Part shown: piece after piece, positions 3,939 to 31,857 of the stretch
Position numbering within the stretch: the stretch's first letter is position 1
Layout: every line of letters starts with the position of its first letter
Source of the DNA: Pseudovirgaria hyperparasitica
Taxonomy: Eukaryota
NCBI GenBank assembly: GCA_010093815.1
Contig: ML996573.1
Reading direction: 5' to 3' (one strand)
Length of the DNA: 31,857 bases
Translations under genes and position numbers: made by a program
The notes under the pieces: model-generated
What the model saw: the letters and a program-made list of their open reading frames with translations, nothing else
What the model was told of the DNA's origin: nothing
Database searches by the model: none

Positions 3939-6459
3939 AAAGGCTAGATACCCTAAGAGAAATAGCTAAGCTAAAAAGAAAATCTCTCGTATCTATTAGT
4001 AGCTTAGATAATAAAATATAAATATCTCTTAAAATTTAGCTCTATTAAAAATACTCTATTAAAGTACTAATTAATAGCGGAGTATAGTCTAATTTTATCT
4101 CTCTAACTATAGTAGATAAACTAAAAATATCCTATAATAGTAAAGAAGAACTATATAAACTATCTACATTCAAAGGACTCAATATAGAATATACTAATAG
4201 AATAGTATACTTAGAAATAGAACCTCTAGATTTAGTCTTAATAGTAGAATACTAATAATTATAACTAGATATAGCGGAGCTAGAATAATATAACTTAATT
4301 CTAGGAATACTATAGCTCGAAGAAGTTAACTCTATAATTAACTAGAAAACTAAGAAAATTATACCCTAGGAAATATTAAGACCCTTAGAAACTATTAAAG
4401 AAGAAGTAGAGATTAATAAATCTATAAAGGCGCTAATAACCGGGAAGTCTATCTACTATATTTAGAAGCTTAATAATAAGTAAGGTAATATAAAGAGCGG
4501 ACCCTTATATAAGAAATATATAGTATAATAAAGTACGCCTATAGATAAATAGATTTAAAAAATAAACGACGTACTTATACTAAAGAAATACTACTAATAC
4601 TATATTATCTTTAAAGAAGAACTTAAGATAGAACTACTAAAGTATAGCCTATATAATTATATAATAATACTCTAACTAGAAATAGTATCTATATTTAAAA
4701 GTATATACTAACTTACTAAAAAATAACTAGAGATAACGTAATAATATATTAAGAAAATAGAAGTAAAGGGATATATCTAACTCTCTAAATTATCTATAGA
4801 ATATCTAATACTCTTTATACTAAAGAAAGATAGAAGCGAACGACCCTATATAGACTATTAATACTTAAATAATATTACTATTAAAAATAGATACCCTCTA
4901 CCCTAAATTAATAAATTATAGGACTAACTTATAGAAGCTTAGTACTTTACTATAATAGACTTATAAGAAGTCTATAACCTTATATATATAATAGAAGGAG
5001 ATAAATAGAAAATAGCTTTTTAGACTTAATACGGCTACTATAAATATCTAGTAATACTATTTAGACTAACTAATATACTAGCTATATTCTAAATACTAAT
5101 TAATAATATACTAAGAGAATACCTTAACTACTTTATAATAGTATACCTAGATAATATATTAATTTATTTAAGAAACCTATTAGAGTATAGAGAATATATA
5201 TATAAGATACTTTAGAAATTATAAATAGTAAATCTACTAGTAGAATTAAAGAAGAGTATCTTCTATATATAGAAAGTTATATTTTTAGAATTTAAAATTA
5301 TATCTAGAGAAATATAAATAGACCTAAAGAAGATTAAAGCTATTAAAAACTAGAAATAATCTAAGATAGTTAAGGAAATCTAAGGATTTACCGGATTTAA
5401 AAACTTTTATAGAAAATTTATATATAACTATTCTATAAAGACGGCCCTACTATATAAGCTTATAAAGAAAAATATAATATTTAAATAGAGACTAAAGTAA
5501 GAATAAGTATTTTAATAATTAAAAGAGTCTATTATAACTAAACCTATATTAAAGATATATTAAATAGGAAAACTCTATAAAGTTAAGATAGATATATTAG
5601 AATTTACTATTAGAGGGTAGTTAACCTAGATAGATAAATAAGGGAAAAGATATTCTATAGTATTTTACTCCCGAAAATTCTAAGGATTAGAAATAAATTA
5701 GCTAATCTATAAAAAAGAACTCTATACTATAATTAAGTATCTTAAGAAATAGAGAAGCTATCTCTACGGATTAGACTATATAGTAAAGGTATATACTAAC
5801 TATAAAAACCTAACTACCTTTACTATAATAAAGGAACTCCGAAAGAAATAAATTAGTTAGTATAAGCTTCTTATAGAGTTTAATATCTAAATTATATACT
5901 ATAAAGGATCCGAAAACGGAAGAGCTAATACCCTTAGCTAATAAGTAGAATATAAGCAAAAAGAACCTACTATAGAATAGACTATATTAGAAATTACTAA
6001 AGAAGGAAACCTTAAACTAATATAATACGTTATAGTAATATAGAAAGAATTTATATTTAAGAATTCTAAGGGAAGGAGTATAATCCTAAGGGACGAGGCC
6101 TATTATTTTATTAAAGAATTCTATAAAGATCCAATATATAGATATTAAGAAGAAATAAAAACTTATAAAAGATTTAAGAGATACTATATAACTTATAAGG
6201 AAAGATAAGTTATTAAGAAAGTTATATAGGACTATATTCTATATAGTAAAAGCTAATCTAATAGATATAAACTATATAGAGAACTTTAACCGATTCCCCT
6301 ACTATTATATACTTAGAAAATAATCTCTATAGACTTTATAATAGATCTACTACTCTTAAGAGAACTAGTTTTATAAGTATAGTATAATACTATACTAGTA
6401 GTAGTTAATAAACTTACGAAGTATACCTACTTTATACCCTATTAAAAGAATATAGATAT
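3929..6459 (+). pseudogene. pol: pol of element A, 5' part (protease, RT, RNase H, integrase N-terminus)
   Basis: Protease LI(D)SG at 4067-4081; RT YLD(D) at 5144-5155; RNase H VETDAS..AIGG ~5582 and NGRADALS ~5915; integrase HHCC ~6120-6245; cut by element B at 6459. Confidence 0.93.
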
Positions 6460-6609
6460 TGTTACAGCTATAGTAGTAGCACATACCATGTATAATCAAT
6501 GTAGGTAGTTGCGAACCGGTCGTTTGTATAAATACAACCGACTAGATGCGTATATAGAAAATAGTATACTTTATAACTAATATAACTTAACTTATTAATA
6601 ATCTTAATA
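6460..6609 (+). repeat. 5' LTR of element B
   Basis: Aligns without gaps to 15857-16006; I count 17 differences, all transitions. Confidence 0.96.
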
Positions 6610-6612
6610 AAG

Positions 6613-6625
6613 TGGTAGCTGAAAG
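6613..6625 (+). promoter_or_regulatory. Candidate tRNA primer-binding site of element B
   Basis: TGGTAGCTG begins 3 nt after the 5' LTR; TGG complements the tRNA CCA end; cognate tRNA not identified. Confidence 0.5.
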
Positions 6626-7017
6626 CTAGTACCTACTAGTTCGTATACTTCGAATACCAAGTCCTCTTTACTAGGCTATCTTAGTTAATATAATAATAAT
6701 AGAACGATCGCTAGTTTAAGCAACCTCCTCCTTACTATACTACCTATACCAACTACTTTATTATAGGCTAGTAAAACGTCCTCCTTCTAGTATACGGCAC
6801 GAGTAGGATAGACTTATTATATTACTATAAACTTAACTCTCTAGAGCTTAAGAACGCTCTATTTACCGGTTACGAAACCATATATAGATCGAACTAGGCA
6901 TCTACGACTCCGTCGCTTCCGTATCTTACTATTTAGCTTAAAGGTTTTCTGTCGTACACCGGACGCTAGCGATTTTATATTTTCTATACTCTTACTAGCC
7001 GCTTATAATAATAGCTT

Positions 7018-10000
7018 ATATTACTACTAGAGGACTTAGTTCTCCTAGGGCATTAACTATTTAGTTACGGATAAGTTAATCGATAGACGTTTAGAAATCT
7101 ACCGCTACTTAAGATAGTACTTAATTATCTTATTACTAACTATCTACCGCCCTCTACTCTAGAACGTTCCTCACGAAGTAGAAGGCTAGCTACCGAGCCT
7201 TTTCTACCGTAGTAGTTAATAAATCGCCTAGCGTTATAAGAGGCGTATAACTCGTTCCTAAATAACCCGTTAATTCGAGCTTAGTACCCTTTAACTACTA
7301 GGCTCCCTAGGGCTTTCTTAAGCTCGTTAGACTCGGTTAATTATATAGTAAGCTCTAGTATAGACGCTACTACATCCGACCGCCCTAAACGTGCTAGCAC
7401 TTTAGTAGAATATACTATACTACGTTAGGTAGACATAGACGCTAGTAATAGTAGCACGCTAGCTAGGGCCCTAACGACCGATAATAGGGACTTTACGGTA
7501 AGGTAGTAAGCTATAATTATAGCTATAATCTAGTAGGCTCTTACTTAGCGGGCGGGTAGTTCACGAGATAACGACTAAAACCCGATGGGTAGTAGTAAAA
7601 ACCTACCGTTTAACGATAACGAAGACGGTTAAGGGTTTAGAATATAAGAAATTAGATTCTTCTAACCCGACTTAGATTATAGCTTCGGAGACAGAGATAT
7701 TATTTTTACCGGTTAGGACATATATATATATAGCGTATATATTTTCCTTAACTAGATTAAAGACGCTACTACGGCTAGAGAAACCGAAACCATTAAGTTA
7801 AAAATCTCTTAGTATCTACGAGGATGTGCCCTCGAGTAGTTTATATTAGGTTTATCTAATCTCGAGAAGGAGGCGCTCCGTTACTTACCTAGTTTAGACG
7901 CCTAGACTACGGCCTTAATTAAGTAGTTTAAGTAGCCGTTATCCGACGCTCTATCGTCCCTTATAACGCGAAGATATACTCTCTAATAGGCCCGCTTCTA
8001 AACTAATATCGCTTTATACGTATATACTATAGCTTACGACTATAGTACCGTATAATTATTAGACCCTTCTAGCTAAAACGCTTAGACGTTCGCATAGAAC
8101 GGCATTAATATTCTCCTTTACTAGGGTCTACCTCCACTAATAGAATCCACGTCTCTAGCCTAATTTATATAAACTCTATAGGTAAAACGCAAAGAATAGT
8201 ACTAACTCGTCTACTATTATCTCGGGGGCGCGTAGCGTAATACTTTAAGTCGATTTACTTAATAAGGAAGAGAAGATAGTTAATATAACGGCTCTTATTA
8301 CTATAACTTACCTTAACCGTTTAGTAACTCTTAAGACTAGGGCTAGTCTAATAGCCGTTATCTTATAACCGATCGACCCGATCGACGCTATAACTTGTAC
8401 TAGCCCCGCCCTCTATAATAGTTCTAATAAGGGTCGGGAGGTTTAGATAAAGGCGGTCGAAAGGCATTAGCTAACGTATATTAGCTACTAGCTATAACCG
8501 GCGCTTCTATAGATTATCCTACTAGTCCTAGAACGACTAATAAGCCCTATACCGGCTAGCCTTAGTCTCTTAGTAATAATAGATAATTTACCTAACCGCT
8601 ACGACTATTCCACTAGGCGTATAATGTTTAGGAAGAATTATATAACCTAGATGTTAAAGATACTTACTATATAGGGGTCGAAGAAGCTTTCTTCTACCTT
8701 AGGCTAACTAATACGGATACTATTAAACTCGTGTAGTTTAGTAACGAAACCGGCCTCGCTAGCCTTAACCCGCCGCCTAGCGACATTAATAAGAGCCTAC
8801 CTTCGTAGTTCGTAGCGTGCTAAGTAACTAATATACATCCGGTATACTAGATCTAATATAACGTTTATAACGAGGTATTTCCGTCGCGAAATAAGCTATT
8901 CAAGTACCTTAAGGATAGAAAGCACCTTAAGACGACGGTAAAGGCTAAGGTTCCCCTATGTAATCGTATAGTCCTAAGATTAGACGTCGTATATTATAAT
9001 ATCTAGGGTAACGTAGTACTATTATTAGTTAGTAACCTACTAGGCACCGGCCGAGCGTATAAAGAATCGTACTATATCTAAGTTAAGGCCTCGCTTAGTC
9101 TTAACGGCCCCATCGAACGCATCTATCTAGATATAGAAAGCGTGGTAATACTAATTAACCAAGCCTTTCTTAAATAGTAGGACCCTAATACCTAAATACT
9201 TATCTAACTAGCTATTTCCATTTAAGGAGTAGAGGGAGTTAAGCCTATAAAGTCGACCGAGTTCGCGGTTATTACGCTATTCCTCCTAGGCCGAACGTCC
9301 GACGGTTTAACCGCTATAATTATAAAAGTAACATGCGAAGTATATATCCTCGACCGTCTATAGGTAGGTCTCCTTCTTAGAACCGACGTTATAGTACCTT
9401 AGAAGATAGATATCTATATAAGTACGTATATAATAACTATCGGCATATATAGCGGGATTACTATACTAACCTTTACTACTACTATTCGACTAGTAGTACG
9501 CTAGGGAGTAACTATTTTATAGTATACCGTCCTCTAGCTACGAATACTCACGCTAGTCCCGATTATAATCCGTCGCTAGTATAAATTAGTCATAGGAGAT
9601 TACGTGTTTACCCTAACGTATATAAGTATAAGGCTTAGTTAGGGCGGAGGCGTCTATATATATCTTACTAACTAAAATATAGCGTATATATTTATCGTAA
9701 ACCGTGGATTTAGATCGGTACGTATAAATAAAAATATAAGACTCGGTGTATTAACGGACGAAATGGACGCCCTCCACGCATTTTAGGCTAAAGTAGTCTC
9801 TTTAGATAGTATAGAGGGATTATCTATAAAGCTTACTTAGCTTAATAAAGTTAAATAGATAGGCGCGTTTAGTATAAAAATTTACGCTAAAGACAAAGCG
9901 ACTACCTAGATATTTAATAAGATCGTCCGAAGTTACGCTATCTTATTTTATAATACTAGACTTATAAATATCCTAGAGAAAGACTAGATACATATCCCCC

Positions 10001-12960
10001 TAGTAAGTAACTAGAAAACGGCTAGTATAAAGCTAAGCTACCGCATCTACTCGTTAGGAGCAAGTGGTAAGGCTATTATTAATAAGATATATAATAAGCT
10101 TTATATATAAGGTCGCATAGAATACCCGATATAGATAATACCGTTCGGTTTCCTAATATTCGTCGTATACTCTATAGTAAAGTTACTCACCTAGATATCG
10201 CGTAAGGACGCCGGTCGGGTAGTTAAAGATATAAGAGACCTAAACAAAATTAGTATTAAGAACTCCTATCTATTACTACTCTAGGGTAATATTATCTAAT
10301 ATACGGCCGGAAAGAAGTTCATATCCGTCGTTAATATAGCTAGCTTCTTCTACTAGTGGCCGGTCGCTAAGGAAGACTATTATAAACTAACGTTTATATC
10401 GTACTAGGGCTAGGAGTAGTTAAACGTTATTCTAATGGGTTTCTATAACTCTCTACCGTACGTATAGAGGTAGATCGATAAGATCTTACACGACGCTAGA
10501 TATAAGGCGTTCACCATGGCGTATATTAACGATATTCCCGTATTTAGTAAGGAACTTAACGAGTATCTTAACTACCTTTAGCGGGTGTTTACTATACTAT
10601 AAGTAAGAAACCTAACGCTTAAAGGTAAAAAGTATTACTTAGGATATCTATCTATTACCCTACTCGGTTAGAAGGTCGACGCTTATAGACTCTCTACTAT
10701 AGCTAAGAAATTAGTAGCTATACGTAATCTCTAGTATCCCGAAACGCTTGATAAGCTCGAATACTACCTTAGACTAACCGGATGGTTATAGTAATACGTG
10801 CTATATTACGCTTAGCTCGCCTAGGACCTATAGGCTAAGAAAACGCGTCTTCTTAAAGAAGCACCTTTAGCGGGATATACACGTATAGCGTACTATAAAC
10901 GAACAAAGATCGCTCGAATAGACTAGCTATTAGCGTTATAGAAGGGTATTTAGGCCGCCTTCGCGGACGAGACTAAGCTTGTCTACTATAATCTAAAACG
11001 ACGGCTCTACGTAGACATTAACGTATTAAAGCACGGCTTTAGAGTCTTCGCTTACTATATTAAAGGGGAAGTAGACGATATTATAAAGATTAGATAATTA
11101 GATATCGAGCCTATTCTATACCTTAGTAAAGAACTCTCTATAGCCGAGTCGCGGTACTAGCTAATAGAGCTAGAAGTGGTAGCGGTCGTGTAGACTATAC
11201 GCTAAATACGCTATATAGTCGACGGTTTAGACTAACTAACGATTGTTATTACCGACTATATAGCCACGCCGAGTATCGTTCGATAGATAGTACTTATAAG
11301 CTTATTAGTTAATAAGCTAAATCTCCAACTAGTACGGGCCTTATAGTATCTATTCTAGTTTAATCTAGAGCTTAAATATAGGCTAGATAAAGAATACGTA
11401 GTACCTAACGCTCTTTCTCGGCTCCGTTAGATCTATAATAGAGTCTAGCTAAGAGACTTAGACGTCCTTAAGAAGCTCTCGACGTTTAACATTATAATAG
11501 TTAAAATCGACCTAAAATTTATAAGGTAGCTAGCTAACGCATATAATAACGATAAGCACTAGGCAAGTATAAAAGCTATAGTACTAGACTAGGATAACGA
11601 TGTTACTCGACTAATTTCTTTTTAATTTACTAATAGTATAATTTATTACATCAATTAGCTTAACGGATGATATCGGATCTACGTGCTAAAATCGCTTAAT
11701 AGAGATATCTTCGCTTAATTCCATAATAAAAGCGCTTATATGGGATTTTTCCGAGCATACGATCGAATTCGCGTGGGCTACTTTATTTATCGGCTCGTAA
11801 AGCGCCTAAAGCACTATATTTAGTACTATCCTACCTATAAAACTTACTAGATATAAAGATATACGCCGTATAGCGAATTGAAGCTAGTCTAGTTACCGCT
11901 AATACCATTTTATACGGTTATAATAGACTTTATTATTAGACTACTAATATAGAATAGGCTTAACGCGCTACTTACTATAACGGATAAGTTTACTAAGCGA
12001 ATCTATCTCGTTCTAGGCCGGAATAACTAGACCGCCGCGTAATAGGTAACTGCGTTTAGGAGGAGTATACTACTAGAATAGAGAGTTCTAGCCGTAATTA
12101 TTTGCGATAGGGACCGAAAATTCCTATCGTCATTTTAGAAAGGAATTTTCGAGGGTATTAGTACTAAAATCCTAGCATTAACCGCTTATTATAAATAGAG
12201 TAACGGTTAAAGCGAACGTATAAACCAAACGGTAAAGATCGCCCTATGTTTTCTTATTTTAATATCGCTAGCCATAGGCTGGACAATCTATATCCTATTA
12301 GTCTAGCGGCTTATAAATAATTTACTAAACGCCTTAATATAAAAATCTCTAAATAAGATGGTATACGGCTTCTAACTATCTAAAGGCACCCTATTTAAGG
12401 AGACTAGTTCGATAGAAGCGAATAATTACGCCTAAAAGCGTAATATAAACCGGAAAGAGACGTTAGACGCGCTAGTATTCGCCTAGACGCGTATGAAGGA
12501 GCGTTTCGATAGGCGCTATACGTCTCTACTAGACCTCGCTTCTAGTAACTAGGTCTATATTCGACTATATAAAGGGTATAAGATTCTAGGCGCTTATTAT
12601 AAGCTTGGCTAATAACGAGTCGGACCGGTACTAATTAAACGCGTGGTAGGCCGTTAGGCGTACGAACTAGAGCTACCGGAGATATAGAAAATATACCTAG
12701 TAATATCTATCGAATAGTTAGAACCATTTCTAAAGGATCTCGACTATTTCGACCGTAGAGAAGATATACACCCACTTACTATTATAAATGAGTAGATGGC
12801 GATAGCTATCTATAATCGGCGCCATGTTCGAATCGGGTGTAATTATAAACTAACCGTTAAATACTAGGTAACGGTATATAGCGATGGTCTAGAATTCGGT
12901 TAGTAGATACGGCGAAGCATGCTTCTATTAGACTTAGTCGAAGAATACGACCTTAGATAA
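7018..12960 (+). pseudogene. gag-pol: Single-frame gag-pol of element B (gag, C2H2 finger, protease, RT, RNase H, integrase, chromo-like domain)
   Basis: All motifs in one frame: gag EIGFFQPDL and CLRGxALEWF (~7650-7845); C2H2 at 8857-8925; protease CLD(TG)S 9124-9141; RT YI(D)D 10522-10533; RNase H YVDIDAS ~11008 and VPDALSR ~11401; integrase HHCC ~11722-11838 plus DDE core; KLGQQRVGP 12601; chromo-like ~12790-12957. Start codon uncertain. Confidence 0.9.
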
Positions 12961-15813
12961 GTCTATAGGAATAGTCTACTAGGAGCCTAGCTAGGTCGAC
13001 GACTACTTAAAGTTATAATATCTATCCGCCCCTAGCCATTATAGATAGGGAGCCGTTAATATCTATTATAACGAGCGGCGTTATAATATATATATTTACT
13101 AAGCATTCTACGAATATATAACTATTAAGTACTTCCTTACGTTATTCGCTTAAAGATCGGTACTAGACCTAGATCTATTAACTAAAGACGACTACCATAG
13201 TTAAGCCGACCGCATAGCCTACTATTCGTAGTTACTAACCTATAAATATTCTATAATATCGACTAATTACTATATATAACTAGCTTTATCCTTACTAGAC
13301 CTAGTATATTAATTTAGTAGGCTCGTAATAGTTACACTCAATCTAAACTAACCGATATCCTCCTACGCCTACGTCTAAAGGTAGGCGAAAAGCACCACTA
13401 GTGGCCTATAGAAAAGATTTAGGCGCGAGCAAACATCGACCTAGCTAACCGACTATCCTATATAGCTCTACACGACGTGATAGCGAACTAGGTAGATTCT
13501 AAGAGTTTTCCTAGCTTGTTAAAAGCTTTCCTACTAATTCTTCTAGAATACATGGTAATAGGATACTCTTCGTCGTCGGCCCTACCCGTATAGGTCTCCG
13601 GTAATAGACCGGTAGTAGGTAATTTCTCTACGACTAAATAACGGCACCTATTAAAATACGATTTACAGCCGTTTTATATAGATTATCCTATTAATATTAC
13701 GGAGGACCGTATAACTTAGCCGCCTATGAACGTCTAGTAGTCCGACCAAGTAAAGTTACTAATTATTATAGTAATAGAGTAACGGATTATAAGGAAGGGC
13801 GAGGTCGGTATCTAATAGCCGGCCGTATTCTTAAAAGAAGGATGGTTTTAGGACGGTTGTCTCCCGCATGGAGCCCCTAGCGTTTTAAATAATAAGGTCG
13901 CGATTATCTTTAATCGATTTATACTCGGTAGAGTAGCGATATTACCACTATATTATTAGTAGATTCTAGAAAAGACTCGTTCTAAGCCCTAGGTAATTAA
14001 AGATAAGCCATTTATAGCGAATAAAACCGACCATTATACTTAGGCGGTACCCTTAGATATCGATCTAATATATAGGCACGAAGATGACGACGGCGGCATT
14101 TTAGCTAAGCGACTATTAAAGATCGTAAGCGCCGTATATCCGACTATAAAAAGTCTAGTAGACGATCTAATTTTAGCCCGATCGCAACGAGTAGGTTATG
14201 TATATACTACGTTACTTATATTACTAACCACTGCCGATAATTCGGACTTTAGCTCGCCGTATAGTTAGTTAAGTAGGTAGCGAATAAACTCGGGCAGCTT
14301 AGTACTAAACGTTAGTAATCTATCGCTATTCACGCCTAAATCGAGTCGGGTAATTAATTTTAAAACTAGCACGTAAAGATTTAACCTAATCACGATTCTA
14401 TAGAAAGATTAGCGGGATAATAAGGAAGTGACTATATTAGATATCTACGCGTATAACCTTAACGTAGTTAAAAGAATCGTCGACTAGTTAACCTAGGCCG
14501 ACGCCTATCTTACCGATGTCTACTAATAACTATACGATATAACCTCGTCTATTAAGGTAAATATAGTCGACTAGAGAACCATGGTAGCTATCTAGATATA
14601 ATTTTTAACGTCCGTTCTAATAGCTACTAGGAATAACCTACGCGTAATACTTCTTAAGTAAGCTAAAACTCTTTATAAACTTATCGGCAACGAAGGTATT
14701 AACTTAGTTAAAAATAGGCATAAGCGACCTATATTCGAGTATACTATTTTAATAACTAAAGACTCCTTCGAAGTTAAGAGTAACCTAGATATATATATTA
14801 CGTTATTCTAGGACTTTCGGTAGAAAGTAAGTACCGCTAAAAAGATATAGAGCCTTGATAGAGTAGTTATAGGAAGTCTAGTTTTTAAAAAACCGACTAT
14901 TAAGAGAGACCTCTATATTATCTAACCTAAGCTTATAAAGAAACGAGTCGTTATCTCATCCGATAAGGAAGAAATTAATAGTAATTTTACTATAGTATAG
15001 CCCCGCCTAGTTATAAAGACGACCTTAGCCGCCTTAAAAACGTTATCTTAGTTATTTTAATGAAAGCCTAAGTAGCCTAATTCGGTCGACCGCCTAGGTC
15101 TCCTACCTAGCCTAAGTAAGTTAGCTCGTCCTCTAGCCGACCGTAGAGAACTAGGACATTACTCGTACTAAATGGGTAAGCTAATTAAGCGACCAGGGCC
15201 TCTAGGGGAGGTAGTTAACCTCCTCGAGCCTATAAAGTTAATTTACGAGTACGGTAAATACGCTATAAGGTTATTTAATAACGAAATTAGCGAGTATATA
15301 TAGGAGTACCTAAACCGTACCCACGACGCTAAATATAAGTTTTATACTAAGGAGTTAAGACTAAAGTAAATGGTTAAATACTACTAGAACGTCTACTACT
15401 ATTATAGCTTTAGACTCGAAGACGCTACCACAACTACTTATGGTTACGAGTGGTACGAACCTTACCTTACCAAAATACTACTAAATAGACCGTTATATTA
15501 TAAGACGTGCTAAAAGGTTATAAAGCTAGTTTTTCTAGATAATAACTCTAATAGCGTATAAGGTAAGCCCGTAATAGCTTTACACGAACTAACTAGCGTA
15601 CTACCTACTAGCGAAGTATAGTAAGTCGACTAGGACGATAATAAAGACGTTAAGGTTACTAAGCTACTAGCCAAGCGACGAGGTCGCCCTAAGGGGACTA
15701 TAAAGCACGTCGCGCCCGCTAAGGAACTCCCTAGCGTCGGTTTAGCCGTAGGTCGACCGTGCCGTGGTGTCTATAAAGATATAAACCCGCGCCTAGCCAA
15801 GCGTCGCGCGTAA
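12961..15813 (+). pseudogene. Extra ~950-codon coding region of element B, in frame with pol; C-terminal RING-H2-like finger and AT-hooks
   Basis: Protein-like reading continues in the pol frame with stops only of the RIP-derivable kind; Cys/His-derivable codons at RING-H2 spacing 15394-15510; intact KRRGRPK at 15673-15693; TAA at 15811-15813 shortly before the 3' LTR. Confidence 0.75.
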
Positions 15814-15856
15814 AGCTACTAAGGGTAGTAGTAGGTTTTCTTAAATTCGGGCACCT

Positions 15857-16006
15857 TATTATAGCTATAGTAGTAGTATATACTATGTATAATTAATATA
15901 GGTAGTTACGAACCGGTCGTTTATATAAATATAACCGACCGGATACGTATATAGAAAATGGTATACTTTATAACCAATACAACTTAACTTGTTAATAATC
16001 TTAATA
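15857..16006 (+). repeat. 3' LTR of element B
   Basis: Direct repeat of 6460-6609 followed by TSD GATAT. Confidence 0.96.
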
Positions 16007-16011
16007 GATAT

Positions 16012-16977: not shown

Positions 16978-17493
16978 ATAGTAACTCTCTATTATTATTT
17001 AAGTTACTCCTCCTTCTTCTTAAGATCTATTACTAATAGATTCTAATAAAGTATATTATTTTAACGACGCTCTAATAGCTTCTACTATTTCTCTAGGTAC
17101 TCTAGATACGTAAAGACGGTCTAAGCGTTCTACTAAGCTTTTCGCTAAGTAGCGGCTATATATTCTTTCTCTAACTTAAGACGAGCCTTTCTAGAATAAA
17201 TCTTCTTATCTAGAAATATTACTTACTAGCCCTAATAAAAGGAAAGAGAACTTATAAGATAATTTACTTAAAGCCTTAATCCTATACTTACTTACCGAGT
17301 AACTCTAATAAATATACTCTAAATACGTATCGGACTTTATAAATGCCACCCTATAAGTTAAACTATATTTCTTATAGAATAAGTAAGGGAAATATATCTT
17401 ATTACCCTTATAATTAATTAAAATAGATAAAGTAACTCTCTATTTTACTAGATTAGATTTAGAAGACTTAACTAATTTTATAACTCTAGATAT
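16851..17493 (-). pseudogene. Antisense ORF in the 3' region of element A: Zn2Cys6-like cluster plus coiled coil, one predicted intron (17267-17210)
   Basis: De-RIPed CSFCKKHGLTCRVAFTKSDxCSECIRQSRSVSEC (C-x2-C-x6-C-x9-C-x2-C-x9-C) at 17385-17284; a 58-nt GT..AG intron joins it in frame to KARLESEKE..FARLERLEKQQELLERR; conserved in the second copy. Confidence 0.7.
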
Positions 17494-17589
17494 AACGGAA
17501 GAAAAAGAGGAAGGGCTCCTTACCAAAGAAAGTTAGGATAACCTTCTACTTATAAGTAACTATAGAAGTACTTCGGGACGAAGTACCTT

Positions 17590-17602
17590 AGAAGGGGTAT
17601 TA
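17590..17602 (+). promoter_or_regulatory. Polypurine tract of element A
   Basis: AGAAGGGG(TATTA) immediately 5' of the 3' LTR; same tract, inverted, at 31442-31454. Confidence 0.75.
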
Positions 17603-18131
17603 TTTAATAAATTACTAGCTAGAGCTATAGAAGAATACGTAGACGCTAGTATAAGTAGTATAAGAAATAGTATAACACGTAGAAGAGGTGCCTATAATAT
17701 AATAGATAACCTTAGATAATAATCTAAGGCTAAGATAGACACCTATAGGGAGAGCTAATTATAGGTACTTAGAATAGGTATTCTAAGTAGTCTATCTAGT
17801 AATTAGAAATAGAATATTAGTATTCTAAGTAATGTACTAAATACTTAGAATAAGTATTCTAATTAGAGGACCTTAGTAGAACTATATAGACCCTTTAGAC
17901 CCGACCTCTAGAGATAGTTCTATAGTAATTAATTTAAACTTATACTAATATAATTACTACTTTACTCGCCTACTAGCTAGTTACTATTTATACCCTATTA
18001 ATACTTATTATAAACCTACTTACACCTCTCGGAGCCTTCTAAGTACTTTTACCTTTAGGAAAGCCGGGATACTCTATAGAACGGACTACTTTAGAGATAA
18101 GCCGCACCCTCGTTAAGGAAGGTTTATTATA
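17603..18131 (+). repeat. 3' LTR of element A
   Basis: 529-bp repeat of 1542-2070 followed by TSD CCTAC. Confidence 0.96.
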
Positions 18132-26057: not shown

Positions 26058-26310
26058 NNNNNNNNNNNNNNNNNNNNNNNNNNNNNNNNNNNNNNNNNNN
26101 NNNNNNNNNNNNNNNNNNNNNNNNNNNNNNNNNNNNNNNNNNNNNNNNNNNNNNNNNNNNNNNNNNNNNNNNNNNNNNNNNNNNNNNNNNNNNNNNNNNN
26201 NNNNNNNNNNNNNNNNNNNNNNNNNNNNNNNNNNNNNNNNNNNNNNNNNNNNNNNNNNNNNNNNNNNNNNNNNNNNNNNNNNNNNNNNNNNNNNNNNNNN
26301 NNNNNNNNNN
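26058..26310. other. Assembly gap (253 N)
   Basis: Run of N. Confidence 1.
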
Positions 26311-26405
26311 TAGAGTAGATAGAGTAGATAGAGTAGATAGAGTAGATAGAGTAGATAGAGTAGATAGAGTAGATAGAGTAGATAGAGTAGATAGAGTAGA
26401 TAGAG
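26311..26405. repeat. Perfect 9-bp tandem repeat (TAGAGTAGA)x10.5
   Basis: Directly visible; abuts the gap, so the true array is probably longer. Confidence 0.95.
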
Positions 26406-26518
26406 AAGCTAAAATACTAGATACTATTTATTCTATAAGAGTTATTAGTATATAGTAAATAAGTAGTACTAGTAAGCTAATTAGTATTAAGAAAATAACT
26501 AGTACTAATTATCCCGTT

Positions 26519-26652
26519 AGTATAAACGGTACATTCGGTATAAACGGGACGTTTAGTATAACTAGTACGTTTGGTACTAATGGGACGTTTAGTATAACTA
26601 GTACATTCGGTATAAACGGGACGTTCGATATAAGCGGGATACTTAGTATAAA
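26519..26652. repeat. 18-bp tandem repeat, about 7.4 copies (consensus GGTATAAACGGGACGTTT)
   Basis: Units AGTATAAACGGTACATTC / GGTATAAACGGGACGTTT / AGTATAACTAGTACGTTT / GGTACTAATGGGACGTTT / AGTATAACTAGTACATTC / GGTATAAACGGGACGTTC / GATATAAGCGGGATACTT. Confidence 0.9.
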
Positions 26653-27099
26653 TTATATAAAGCCGTCCTATTAGGATAGATAGTAAGTAGGTCCGTCTAA
26701 TAAATATAATAGAATAAAAGAATACTTAGGGAGTACTTAGAAGTACTTGGGAGCGCCGTATCTTTTCTAATGTAGACTATATAGAAGTAGAGACGTATAT
26801 TAATACTACTCTCTCTTAATATAGCTAGTATATTTAATAAGGTAAACTATATAAGACTTATTTATAATCTATAATAATAATAATATTATATAACTAGATA
26901 GAGTAGTTTACTCTATAGATATATACCTTCTCTAGTCTAAGCTATTATATAAGAAGAAACCTTTATAAAAGGAAAAACTCTCTTCTCTCTATAACTATAT
27001 CTTATTAAGTCTTCGTGTTATCTTAAGTATATAGCTATTAGAAATATCTATAGACCTATAGTCTATAGTACTATTATTTTACCCTTAGATAGTATATAT

Positions 27100-30000
27100 A
27101 GAGTATATAGGTTATTAGATAAGAGCTACCCTTAACTAATAATTAGGGTTCTTCTAGAGTTCTTCCGGTATATACTAGGGCTTACCTAATATATATCTAG
27201 CTTCTTCTAGTATATATATCTAGGTCTACTAGTACTAAGAGAGTAGAAGATATATAAGTATCTACTAGGTAATCTCCTTAGAGTACTCGTTAAGCTAGTA
27301 TATAATATTAGAGGTCTTTATTATATAGATAAGTAATTATCTTTATATATAGAGGTTTATATATATTATAAGATAGTACTATATTATATCTCTTTAGCTA
27401 TATACTTTATACTATAGAGATATATTAGGGACGCCTCTCTAGTATAGATAGTATAGAAGTTCTATAGCTCCCGTTTAGACTTAGAGAAGAATAGATATCT
27501 AGGCTTTTATAAGTCTCTTATATATCTATTTACTTAGTTTCTTCTATAGTTCTTAAATCTACTCTAGATATCTATTCTATTAAGATATCTAGTAGATTTA
27601 GAGGGCCTCTCTCTATTTATTCTAGATCTATAACTTTATAGTCTATATAAGCTCTTAAGGGTTCTACTAGTCTAGAGAGATATCTAGATTATTCTCTATC
27701 TTCTATATAATCTAATTTAAGTCTATCTCTATTAGATACTTATATTATATCTAGGTTTAGTCTATATATAATAGCGCTTAATAGTAGGTACTAACTTATA
27801 TATATAGTATAGCGAATATATATTCTATATATCCCCTATATTTCTATACTTATTATTTAGTAAAGTATATTACCCTCTATATCTAGTAGAAGTTCTATAT
27901 ACTTATTACGTTTATCTTACGTTATAGTAGTACTATATTAGTAGCTTTATATATACTAGATATAAGGTAGAGTATATAGTTCTATATAGACTTAAGCTTT
28001 ATTATCTAGTTTATATAAGGGCTATATACTAGTACTTATATCTATATATAAAGGCGGGTCTTACTATAGAGATATAGAGCTAGCGCGTCTTATTCTAGGT
28101 GGTTCTCTATATAGAGGCCGTAATCTAGTATATAGTAGCTTCTATCTTAAGGGCCCTAGATATAGCGTATATAATCTATAGACTCTATTTAAGTTTATTA
28201 TTAATTATAATACTAAGTATATATATACTCTATATTAGTAGTTCGGTAAAGGTATCTATTCTAGAATATTACTCTCCCTTCTTAGTAGTCTATCTTCTAT
28301 AGTAGTTAATAAAGTATATAAGTTAGTATTTCTTAGAGGTGAACTTTACTCCATGGCGCTTTATCTATAGAATATATCTCTTATAGTCTTATTTAAGGTA
28401 TTTATATATTAAACTAGTATTATTATTAATAGCTAGGAGGTATATATTATTAGCGTATTCTACTACCTCTATATATTATATCTCTTATAGAAGGTCTATA
28501 GTTAAGAAGAGAAAGAGAATTAGAGAGATAGTACTTTCTTATAGAATACTATATATTATCTTCTTATATTTACTTTAATATCTAGAGATATATATCTAGA
28601 TAATTCTTTTAGTAAGGAAGGACTATATAAACTTTATAATCTATTCGGGTATATATCTCTTCTATAGATTATAGATAAGTCTTATATAGTTTACCTTATT
28701 AAATATACTAGCTATATTAAAAGAGAGTAATATTACTACGCGTCTTTACTTCTATATAGTCTAAATAACTTTAAGAATATATTAGATAGCGGTAACTAGA
28801 GAGCTTCTAGTCTTCGTCTTCTAGTTCGCTAGAAGAAGATTATATTCTTATACTATAGTACTTATCTTCTTTATAATTATAGTCTTAAGTATTTTACTAA
28901 GATAGAAGAGAAGAATAATTAGTCTCTATCCCTTTAAAGAGTTAGAATTCTTTTCTAGCTTTAGAAGTATAATAGTATAGATAGTCTAGAAGCTTTAGAG
29001 ATAGTATCTATTCTTAGCGTACGCCTAGAAGATAAGATAGATAAGTAGTAAGGTTATCTATATAGTATATTTAAGATATCTATTTAGTATTCTATCTAGT
29101 CTAGACGCTTTATTATTTAGAAGTACTTTAATAGTATTAAGTATATTTTTCTTTATAATCTCTACGGGGATATTAACCACGTCTAGATATATAGTATTAT
29201 TAATATCTAATAGATCTACTAGCTCTAGGGGGGGAATATAACTTCTTAGAGAATCTCTATCTTTTTAGGGCTTATAGTATATATTCTCCCCTAGTATATT
29301 ATAGAAGGTATTAGTAGTAGTAGTATTAGTACATCTACGCTCTTAGTCTACTTTACTATGTACTATAGCTCTATAGTCTATTATATATATTTATTAGTAA
29401 TTATATACTAGTATTTATATTATTTATTATAGAGAATTCTATTATAAGATTAGATTATCTCTTTCTATTTCTTCTACGCCTTAGCTATCTAGATATAGTA
29501 TATATATATATATAGTCTACGGGCTTCCTATCTACTTTTATATATTTAAGGTATACTTCTTATATCTAGGGGTTTATATATTTAGTATAGTATATATTTA
29601 TCTCTTAAGTCTTAGAAGACTTAAAGAAGAACTTATATAGCTCTATCTATAGCTAGGCTATTAGATATATTAACTATAGAGGGATCTAGAATTACTAATT
29701 CTAGGTTCTTTCTATACTTCTTCTAGTTAGTATCTTTCTATAGCTATCTTCTCTATTATTTATTAGATATAGATATATCTATTATAGTCTCTATATACTT
29801 ATAGTTAGAGTCTATCTATATCTTACTAGGGCGGTAGTATTATACTCTATAGCTTATATATTCTATAGTAAGGCAGAGGTCGAGTATAGATCTCTTCTTA
29901 TTCTATTTATATTTCCTCTATATAATCTATCTAACTAGTATAAGAAGATATAGAAGGTCTTAGTATCTTATATATAGTTCTCTTATTCTAAGCTCTTCTC

Positions 30001-30440: not shown

Positions 30441-30912
30441 TACTAGAAAATACTTAAGTCTATATACTAGTAGTATTAATGTATAACTATCTCTATACGG
30501 TAGCTACTTTAAGAATACTCTAGAGTTACTCTATCTTTCTCTATATAGTATACTATTATATATTAGTCCCGCCTTCTTATAGATTAGTTAGTATAGTTAT
30601 AGATAAGGTTAGAGTAGATAGTAGAGACCTTATAGTCTAGTATATCTATCTTATCTCTCTTACCTTTATAGTATTAATATACTTAGTAACTTATCTATAT
30701 TTTATATATATTACTAACTATAATAGATAGTTTCTATTATAGTTAGAGTACTTAGTAGTATCTTTATTATATATATAGTCCCCCTATCCTTTATATAGAT
30801 ATTTCTAGATATAGTAGTTCTATTAGTACTATCCATAGATAGCTTTCTAAGAGTATCTCTATCTAGTATATCTATATCTCTATTAGTTAAAGTATTAGAT
30901 TAATATCTATAC
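30440..30912 (-). pseudogene. LINE ORF1 (gag-like) C-terminal fragment with zinc knuckles
   Basis: De-RIPed QCFNx.RYGH....C..KAICG.C...H....CP, plus a third Cys/His cluster; cut by the LTR at 30913. Confidence 0.7.
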
Positions 30913-31441
30913 TATAATAAACCTTCCTTAATAAGGGTACGGCTTATCCCTAAAGTAGTTTGTTCCATAGAGTATCCCGGCTTTCCTAAAGGTAAAGGTA
31001 CTTAGAAGGCTCTAAGAGGTGTAAGTAGGTTTATAGTAAGTATTAATAGAGTATAAATAGTAACTAGCTAGTAGGCGAGTAAAGTAGTAATTATATTAGT
31101 ATAAGTTTAAATTAATTACTATAGAACTATCTCTAGAGGTTAGGTCTAAAGGGTCTATATAGTTCTACTAAGGTCCTCTAATTAGAATACTTATTCTAAG
31201 TATTTAGTACGTTACTTAGAATACTAATATTCTATTTCTAATTACTAGATAGACTACTTAGAATACCTATTCTAAGTACCTATAATTAGCTCTCCCTATA
31301 GGTGTCTATCTCAGCCTTAGATTATTACCTAAGGTTACCTATTATATTATAGATACCTCTTCTACATATTATACTATTTCTTATACTACTTATACTAGAG
31401 TCTATATATTCTTCTATAGCTCTAGCTAGTAATTTATTATA
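30913..31441 (-). repeat. 3' LTR of the second A copy (529 bp)
   Basis: Reverse complement of the A LTRs, with the PPT adjacent at 31442-31454. Confidence 0.96.
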
Positions 31442-31550
31442 TAATACCCCTTCTAAGGTACTTCGTCCCGAAGTACTTCTATAGTTACTTATAAGCGGAA
31501 GGTTATCCTAATTTTCTTTAGTAAGGAGCCCTTCCTCTTTTTCTTCTATT

Positions 31551-31856
31551 ATATCTAGAATTATAAAATTAGTTAAGCCTTCTAAATCTAATCCGGCGAA
31601 ACGGAGAGTTACTTTATCTATTTTAATTAATTATAAGGGTAATAAGATGCCTTTCCCTTACTTATTCTATAAGAAATATAGTTTAACTTATAGAGTAGTA
31701 TTCATAAAGTCCGATAAGTATTTAGAGTATATTTATTAGAGTTACTTAGTAAGTAAGTATAGAATTAAGGCTTTAAGTAAATTATCTTATAAGTTCTCTT
31801 TCCTTTTATTAGGGCTAGTAAGTAATATTTCTAGATAAGAAGGTTTATTCTAAAAA
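31551..31856 (+). pseudogene. Antisense Zn2Cys6-like ORF of the second A copy (partial)
   Basis: Same cluster at 31659-31760 and same predicted intron at 31777-31834. Confidence 0.68.
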
Positions 31857-31857
31857 G

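Follow-up and report, generated by a model that had tools for sequence, protein, structure and literature searches.

Element B, a Gypsy LTR retrotransposon in the window (the whole 31,857-nucleotide stretch of Pseudovirgaria hyperparasitica DNA that was analysed), carries at its 3′ end genuine coding remains that belong to the element. They form an accessory open reading frame (ORF) that was under purifying selection as strong as that on gag-pol and that travelled with the element. The ORF is probably a separate accessory gene with its own start near 13300, not a tail of pol. This reading is favoured because of the composition of the spacer in front of the ORF, a frameshift shared among copies, the early pol ends of relatives and the filling of the same slot in other families. 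B would then be a fungal chromodomain Gypsy with two genes, in which gag-pol stops within ~45 codons of the chromodomain and is followed by a spacer of a few hundred bases and a sense-strand accessory gene of ~835 codons. The frame common to both genes would be a one-in-three coincidence, and the accessory gene might be expressed from a subgenomic transcript of its own, through an internal promoter or splicing.

Table 1. Coordinates of element B and of related elements with long 3′ ORFs (window positions unless a locus is named)
Feature	Position	Strand	Remarks
GATAT target-site duplication, left copy	6455..6459		
Element B	6460-16006	+	Gypsy LTR retrotransposon, 9.55 kb
5′ LTR	6460..6609	+	150 bp
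Single-frame gag-pol	7582..12957	+	Gag, protease region, RT, RNase H, integrase, SH3, chromodomain-like end
Probable short pol tail and non-coding spacer	12961..13305	+	~115 codons
Accessory ORF	13306..15813	+	~835 codons from an approximate start; all copies seen are destroyed by RIP
Cys4 motif, C-x-C-x18-C-x8-C	15244..15336	+	Read from relics L050 and L029
C3HC4 RING finger	15394..15510	+	Relic L029; Cys mostly Tyr in the window
Two AT-hook-like basic motifs	15673..15768	+	RRGRP, and GRP then basic residues; after an acidic stretch; window and L029
3′ LTR	15857..16006	+	150 bp
GATAT target-site duplication, right copy	16007..16011		
Family S	G000:C1:2633321-2646174 (L051, L055, L059)		Copies on C3, C7, C10, C44, C32
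Long 3′ ORFs of four metagenome families	L085:8160-12797; L092:8300-11882; L099:7132-9154; L101:15715-21240; L105; L111		

The two LTRs of B differ at 17 of 149 positions, and every difference is a transition. The LTR ends are TG...CA, with the TG found in the 5′ LTR of the window and the CA in the copies C11, C8 and C7; the 5-bp target duplications across the B copies are GATAT, TAGAG, TATAG and TAGAT. DNA search of the host genome (G000) with the 3′ region gave 30 matches. The alignment of B, built from 16 ten-kb stretches and shorter loci, comprises 23 copy pieces, the window included; the distant relic L029 was left out of it. The 3′ region lies between the LTRs, is colinear in every long copy (16-20 copies per column), and C11 aligns with the window over 9,543 bp with zero gaps. 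The terminal stop sits at 15811-15813, which agrees with the sequence-only reading that coding extends to 43 bp before the 3′ LTR. Later insertions were seen in the copies, ~2.6 kb at the same site in C22 and C7 (window 13229-13245) and ~0.85 kb in C9b (window position 13919-13935), each with a 17-bp overlap, as left by LINE insertions. Subfamily markers swap along the B copies between 12700 and 15800, where C1, C22 and C7 change partners, a pattern suggestive of gene conversion or of subfamilies that recombined in the course of copying.

The gag-pol of B aligns to the intact relatives P0003-P0005 over 7582 to 12951. Its true start would lie somewhere upstream of 7582; the start at ~7018, from which a 2,930-codon frame had been counted, found no confirmation, and homology to the intact relatives begins only at 7582. 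RT_RNaseH scored above the Pfam cut-off on the pol of B, and RVT_1, RT_RNaseH_2, SH3_Tf2-1 and Integrase_H2C2 scored below it. Pfam positions together with the P0003-P0005 alignment give the domain order RT, RNase H and integrase. Pfam Chromo found no match on the window; the alignment spans the P0004 chromodomain to 12951, and P0003 scores Chromo. In Gag, window 8851-8910 aligns to a C2H2-like finger of P0003 that replaces the usual CCHC knuckle (Pfam zf-C2H2, E=0.024, below the cut-off), and this motif recurs throughout the clade.

The window is RIP-saturated fungal repeat DNA, with a TpA/ApT ratio of 1.5-2.5 and with CpA and TpG almost absent. The frame contains 60 stops between 12961 and 15810. 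TAA, TAG and TGA are each obtainable from a sense codon through C>T or G>A, so that the restriction to RIP-type stops, offered earlier as a sign of coding, is uninformative. The search for invariant stops among aligned copies, which had been proposed as a check, proved equally empty: all-copy stop columns make up 47 of 951 in the extra region, and the corresponding counts are 45 of 900 for PR-RT and 29 of 520 for integrase. With RIP saturated in the host genome, such a comparison cannot work. As coding evidence, stop density is slightly informative, with 0.085 in the ORF frame versus 0.139 and 0.157 in the remaining plus-strand frames, although one of the minus frames has 0.085 too. Since RIP yields transitions only, transversions were used to gauge selection.

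Between 13301 and 15813, 84 columns show a transversion common to at least two copies, and in 47 of them it affects codon position 3 (p=1.7e-5); the same measure gives 30 of 52 columns in gag-pol. In three consecutive blocks of the accessory ORF, the position-3 counts are 11/19, 18/25 and 18/40. Protein search further revealed un-RIPed short relics of older relatives at five host-genome loci, with coverage of 13711-13866, 13885-14121, 14698-15069, 15220-15345, 15298-15429 and 15421-15810. These relics span about half of the ORF from 13711 onward, at 41-70% identity, and have no stop in 467 aligned codon columns. Compared with the window, they place 83 of 140 transversions on position 3 (p=3e-10), and the relic residue opposite a window stop is Q, W or R in 21 of 28 cases. 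Evidence for coding is thinner at 13306-13710, where 11 of 19 changes are on position 3 and codon make-up is normal, and which no un-RIPed relic covers. A purine/pyrimidine frame model, a weak one that recovered the correct frame in 20 of 29 pol blocks, gives frame 0 no preference at 13381-13800. No intact copy of B or of the accessory ORF was found among the copies seen.

That the ORF is a captured host gene or a nested insert, carried as a functionless passenger, is very improbable. The combination of a RING and an AT-hook is an ordinary nuclear architecture and would suit such an origin. However, the position-3 bias among element subfamilies equals that of gag-pol, and this selection signal largely refutes the idea. 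The region is present in all long copies with no duplication of its own seen, which counts against a nested insert. The five un-RIPed matches in the host genome are short fragments, one of them attached to a related LTR piece, and no full host gene was found there.

The sequence-only reading had described ~2.85 kb, or ~950 codons, of coding in frame with gag-pol. The frame is indeed common to 7018, 12961 and 15811-15813, and the ~835 codons from 13306 onward were selected, whereas the first ~115 codons (12961-13305) are not coding-like and look like a spacer. At 12961-13300 no position-3 bias was found (3 of 8 shared transversions, over 8 columns only). Purine-A-N codons, which encode D/E/K/N, have a frequency of 0.090 in the spacer versus 0.206 for pol and 0.226-0.236 for the sequence downstream; with related copies pooled, the counts are 170/1,894 in the spacer, 2,473/11,978 in pol and 334/1,476 just downstream. 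This composition is not decisive alone as evidence for a separate gene, and the low value of the spacer (8/113) is equalled by one protease window (7/113). A 1-bp insertion at ~13101-13103 is shared by 6 of 16 copies (C1, C9b, C21a, C21b, C22 and C23a), and is the only frameshifting insertion within 7018-15813 that is common to at least two copies. Its carriers have different 3′ flanks and occupy several insertion sites, and C1 has its two LTRs as well as a TATAG duplication; C21a and C21b may stem from a single later duplication. The true pol stop would be one of the all-copy stops at 12958-13084.

These data bear on the alternative of a single ~2,900-residue Gag-Pol-X polyprotein, in which the accessory part would be fused via a low-complexity linker and either cleaved or integrase-borne, and would have been lost in cis by the +1 lineage. 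We regard this fusion as unlikely. The frame is retained across the junction in 10 of 16 copies, the most diverged and outlying ones included, so that in-frame is the ancestral state in B, and the composition dip of the junction has its equal inside gag-pol; both points are in favour of a fusion. Against it, the junction has no position-3 bias and contains the shared frameshift, and no unbroken selected frame could be followed across it (3/8 on position 3, the shared insertion and low D/E/K/N, over few columns). Changes private to the +1 lineage fall on position 3 in ~4 of 8 cases, as counted by eye. The lineage shows merely that fusion was unneeded in cis, and selection after the frameshift lacks support; a frameshift behind the chromodomain would also be tolerable if the fused part were dispensable in cis.

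Comparison with relatives revealed where pol ends elsewhere in the clade. The polyproteins of P0003-P0005 end shortly after the chromodomain in basic tails, and those of P0003 and P0004 end in RGRP motifs, as the accessory ORF of B does, which would be consistent with an insert placed in frame between the chromodomain and the tail and hence with the fusion. On the other side, among 73 metagenome loci, 46 of which reach the chromodomain end, 18 are stop-free over the last 1,000 codons, and in all 18 of these pol ends 5-76 codons past the chromodomain. No Pfam domains beyond gag-pol were found in the six long relatives from the pol search, and no fused protein was found among candidates of 1,664-4,750 residues, in a search that was weak. 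The choice between a fused polyprotein and a separate ORF, both offered by the sequence-only reading under a title that stressed the fusion, tips toward the separate ORF on the spacer, the shared frameshift, the pol ends of relatives and a pair of related families whose common 3′ ORF is in the pol frame in one and out of it in the other.

Five other families of the clade have long 3′ ORFs, none similar to that of B. Long 3′ genes occur in 4 of the 11 metagenome families with both LTRs, plus two host-genome families. The L085 element is intact, with LTRs 99% identical, and its 3′ region has ORFs of 414, 896 and 171 stop-to-stop codons in a frame other than that of pol; L092 has an ORF related to that of L085 and no 3′ LTR in its contig. 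The 3′ ORF of L101 is in the pol frame, and the ORF of L105 and L111, 56% identical to it from codon 134, is shifted by spacer indels, which may represent the same coincidence of frames as in B. Family S, in the host genome, is a 12.85-kb Gypsy of the gag-pol clade of B with 139-bp LTRs; it is lightly RIPed, and four copies share 91-94% mutual identity. Its 3′ ORF has ~1,375 codons in a frame that differs from that of pol. These families (S, L085/L092, L099/L104/L106 and L101/L105/L111) share the clade and the slot of B, with a spacer and then a long sense ORF, and differ from it in sequence.

The family-S ORF has no Pfam family at E<=0.05 and no PDB match, the ORFs of L085, L092, L099, L101 and L105 have no Pfam family at E<=0.05, and no RING pattern was found in the 3′ ORFs of S, L085/L092, L099/L104/L106 and L101/L105/L111. 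Homology between the ORFs of B and family S was considered and rejected (probability 0.05 and 0.1). Profiles of these two ORFs matched none of the 73 metagenome loci, and viral contigs gave no match to the family-S ORF or to P0003. Long elements intermingle with short ones in a quick tree, which puts B somewhere within the P0003 clade. A stop-free RT-like match was also seen in the host genome at G000:C36:52750-54120, on a small contig, with an open frame of 1,451 codons and 28% identity to P0003; it may be either an un-RIPed retroelement or foreign DNA.

A further alternative makes the ORF a 3′ exon, joined by splicing to a message whose start is in the leader, gag or pol, so that the protein would have an upstream part; it departs from the separate-gene reading solely in the mode of expression, and we hold it to be distinctly improbable. 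A pyrimidine-rich stretch and tandem NAG triplets lie at 13315-13320, where C22 and C7 have a 3-bp gain, and env genes, as well as the CERV gene of Cer1, would offer precedents in the available text of PMC10309623 and PMC7264820. Nevertheless, RIP erases GT/AG and branch signals, and an own start is available: all 18 copies have an in-frame ATA, the RIP product of a start codon, at 13276 and 13306, and two of the 18 still have ATG at 13552.

Homology searches with the accessory ORF of B returned only the host itself. The first ~750 codons have no match in Pfam, PDB, two word-based searches, a full HMMER scan or Atlas, and within these searches the earlier statement that the first ~800 residues belong to no recognised family holds. 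Pfam on the X-read extra region gave 0 families, and a PDB sequence search with a six-copy alignment gave 0 matches at E<=10. Word-based search of long proteins yielded no homologue, with or without the relics added. HMMER against 1.84 billion representatives gave 2 matches, P0001 and P0002, both labelled as hypothetical proteins from Pseudovirgaria hyperparasitica. The host genome encodes P0001 without a single mismatch, and P0002 corresponds to relic L048; they are not independent homologues because these gene models were built on relics. A metagenome scan with P0001 gave 102 pattern matches, none of them confirmed, the Atlas search gave no usable lead, and no foreign homologue of the ORF was found in the searches. 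AlphaFold models of the last 704 residues and of an 86-residue relic had a mean pLDDT of 22.9 and 47.3, respectively, which does not suffice for a fold search. The un-RIPed relic at L048:2802-3479 (G000:C9, minus strand) holds one piece that resembles the C-terminal end of the family-S ORF (E=1e-13) and another that resembles residues 308-387 of the region of B. The two pieces lie ~100 AT-rich bases apart and are spliced together in the gene model P0002; they may be two relics that lie side by side, or else a third accessory gene of mosaic make-up.

The C-terminal part of the ORF, as read from relics, carries three motifs (Table 1). The Cys4 motif resembles a GRF-type zinc finger; zf-GRF has no Pfam match at E<=1 on relics L050 and L029 and there is no useful PDB match, and Pfam on this region of the relics returned Pcf11_C alone (E=0.012). 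In L029, the RING finger has all eight ligands in the spacing C-x2-C-x11-C-x-H-x2-C-x2-C-x11-C-x2-C, and the C-terminal part of the relic scores 25.8 bits against Pfam zf-C3HC4 (cut-off 21, E=9.6e-6). Its two halves are separated by a later insertion. The basic motifs near the end are AT-hook-like; AT_hook has no Pfam match on the relics, and the RGRP-type motif is seen in both the window and L029. The majority of C3HC4 RINGs act as E3 ligases, and AT-hooks are motifs that bind to AT-rich DNA. For 13750-13870, a PWWP-like reading was dropped for lack of profile support. L029:1500-2586 (G000:C4, minus strand) is an un-RIPed, internally deleted derivative, in which ~125 bp of a related LTR is directly joined to the RING end. 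The insertion in its RING is palindromic, ~460 bp long, with an 8-bp duplication, and resembles a hAT-type MITE.

No transmembrane segment was detected: no 19-residue window exceeds a hydropathy of 1.9 in the ORF (maximum 1.78), the relics reach <=0.85, and the absence holds although RIP raises hydrophobicity. An env reading of the ORF was rejected on this ground, although its sense position after pol and before the 3′ LTR does fit, and an envelope role is unlikely. We tentatively suggest, with somewhat less than even confidence, that the product could be a nuclear, DNA-tethered ubiquitin ligase that targets for removal either a silencing factor of the host or one of the element's proteins, and so helps the element to copy. 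A broader proposal, that the clade has a 3′ cargo slot filled by unrelated accessory genes, here by a chromatin-tethered RING ligase that would destroy a host silencing factor in the manner of viral accessory E3s, is more doubtful. The main alternative function would be an RNA-export role by analogy with CERV, as far as CERV is described in the available text of PMC10309623.

Fungal Gypsy elements are usually drawn with gag-pol only, and extra ORFs are listed without function. According to the available text of a 2010 study (PMC2864245), fungal Gypsy elements range from 4.4 to >13 kb, many with a single fused gag-pol ORF and some with an extra ORF; this text gives no domain content. In the sections at hand of Vicient and Casacuberta 2020 (PMC7264820), additional ORFs that lie in sense orientation after pol and before the 3′ LTR of plant and insect Gypsy elements are called env-like. 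The ORF of B matches them in position, orientation, presence in most copies and gag-pol-like conservation, and differs in being without a transmembrane segment; the words RING and zinc are absent from PMC7264820 and PMC11963269. CERV of the Caenorhabditis elegans element Cer1 is described in the accessible part of PMC10309623 as having a C4-type loop, ring-shaped multimers and a demonstrated role in RNA export. By description, both are large non-env ORFs lying after pol and before the 3′ LTR, nuclear (for B, by inference) and lineage-restricted, with a cysteine-rich finger, but CERV has a C4-type loop and no RING domain. In the planarian giant Gypsy Burro/GYPSM1 (Arkhipova and Yushenova 2019; available text of PMC6431247), AIR1 RING-type, MATH-TRAF and BIR motifs are reported. 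These ubiquitin-related motifs lie inside a 4,873-residue ORF1 polyprotein of an animal element, whereas B has a 3′ gene in a fungus. The consulted portion of PMC3248453 covers chromodomains and nested insertions only. A RING-bearing fungal Gypsy ORF was not found in the literature searched, which lay largely outside subscription journals, and the RING plus AT-hook-like end on a fungal Gypsy accessory gene is one for which we found no earlier description.

A RING next to putative DNA-binding hooks suggests, in a form open to testing, how such elements might deal with silencing by the host. The B family was found in a single genome and is dead there; long 3′ genes are frequent across the clade and intact examples exist, of which L085 is the best subject for expression work.

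Other repeats were also seen in the window. Inverted repeats of 104 bp, 1.8 kb apart and 92% complementary, lie at 26770-28766 and probably mark a RIPed DNA transposon. Three related repeat pieces, in direct and inverted orientation and 92-94% alike, form another repeat family placed around B at 1542-2096, 17187-18131 and 30887-31857. At 26293-26650, an assembly gap precedes two arrays, a perfect tandem one of 9 bp and a decayed one of 18 bp.
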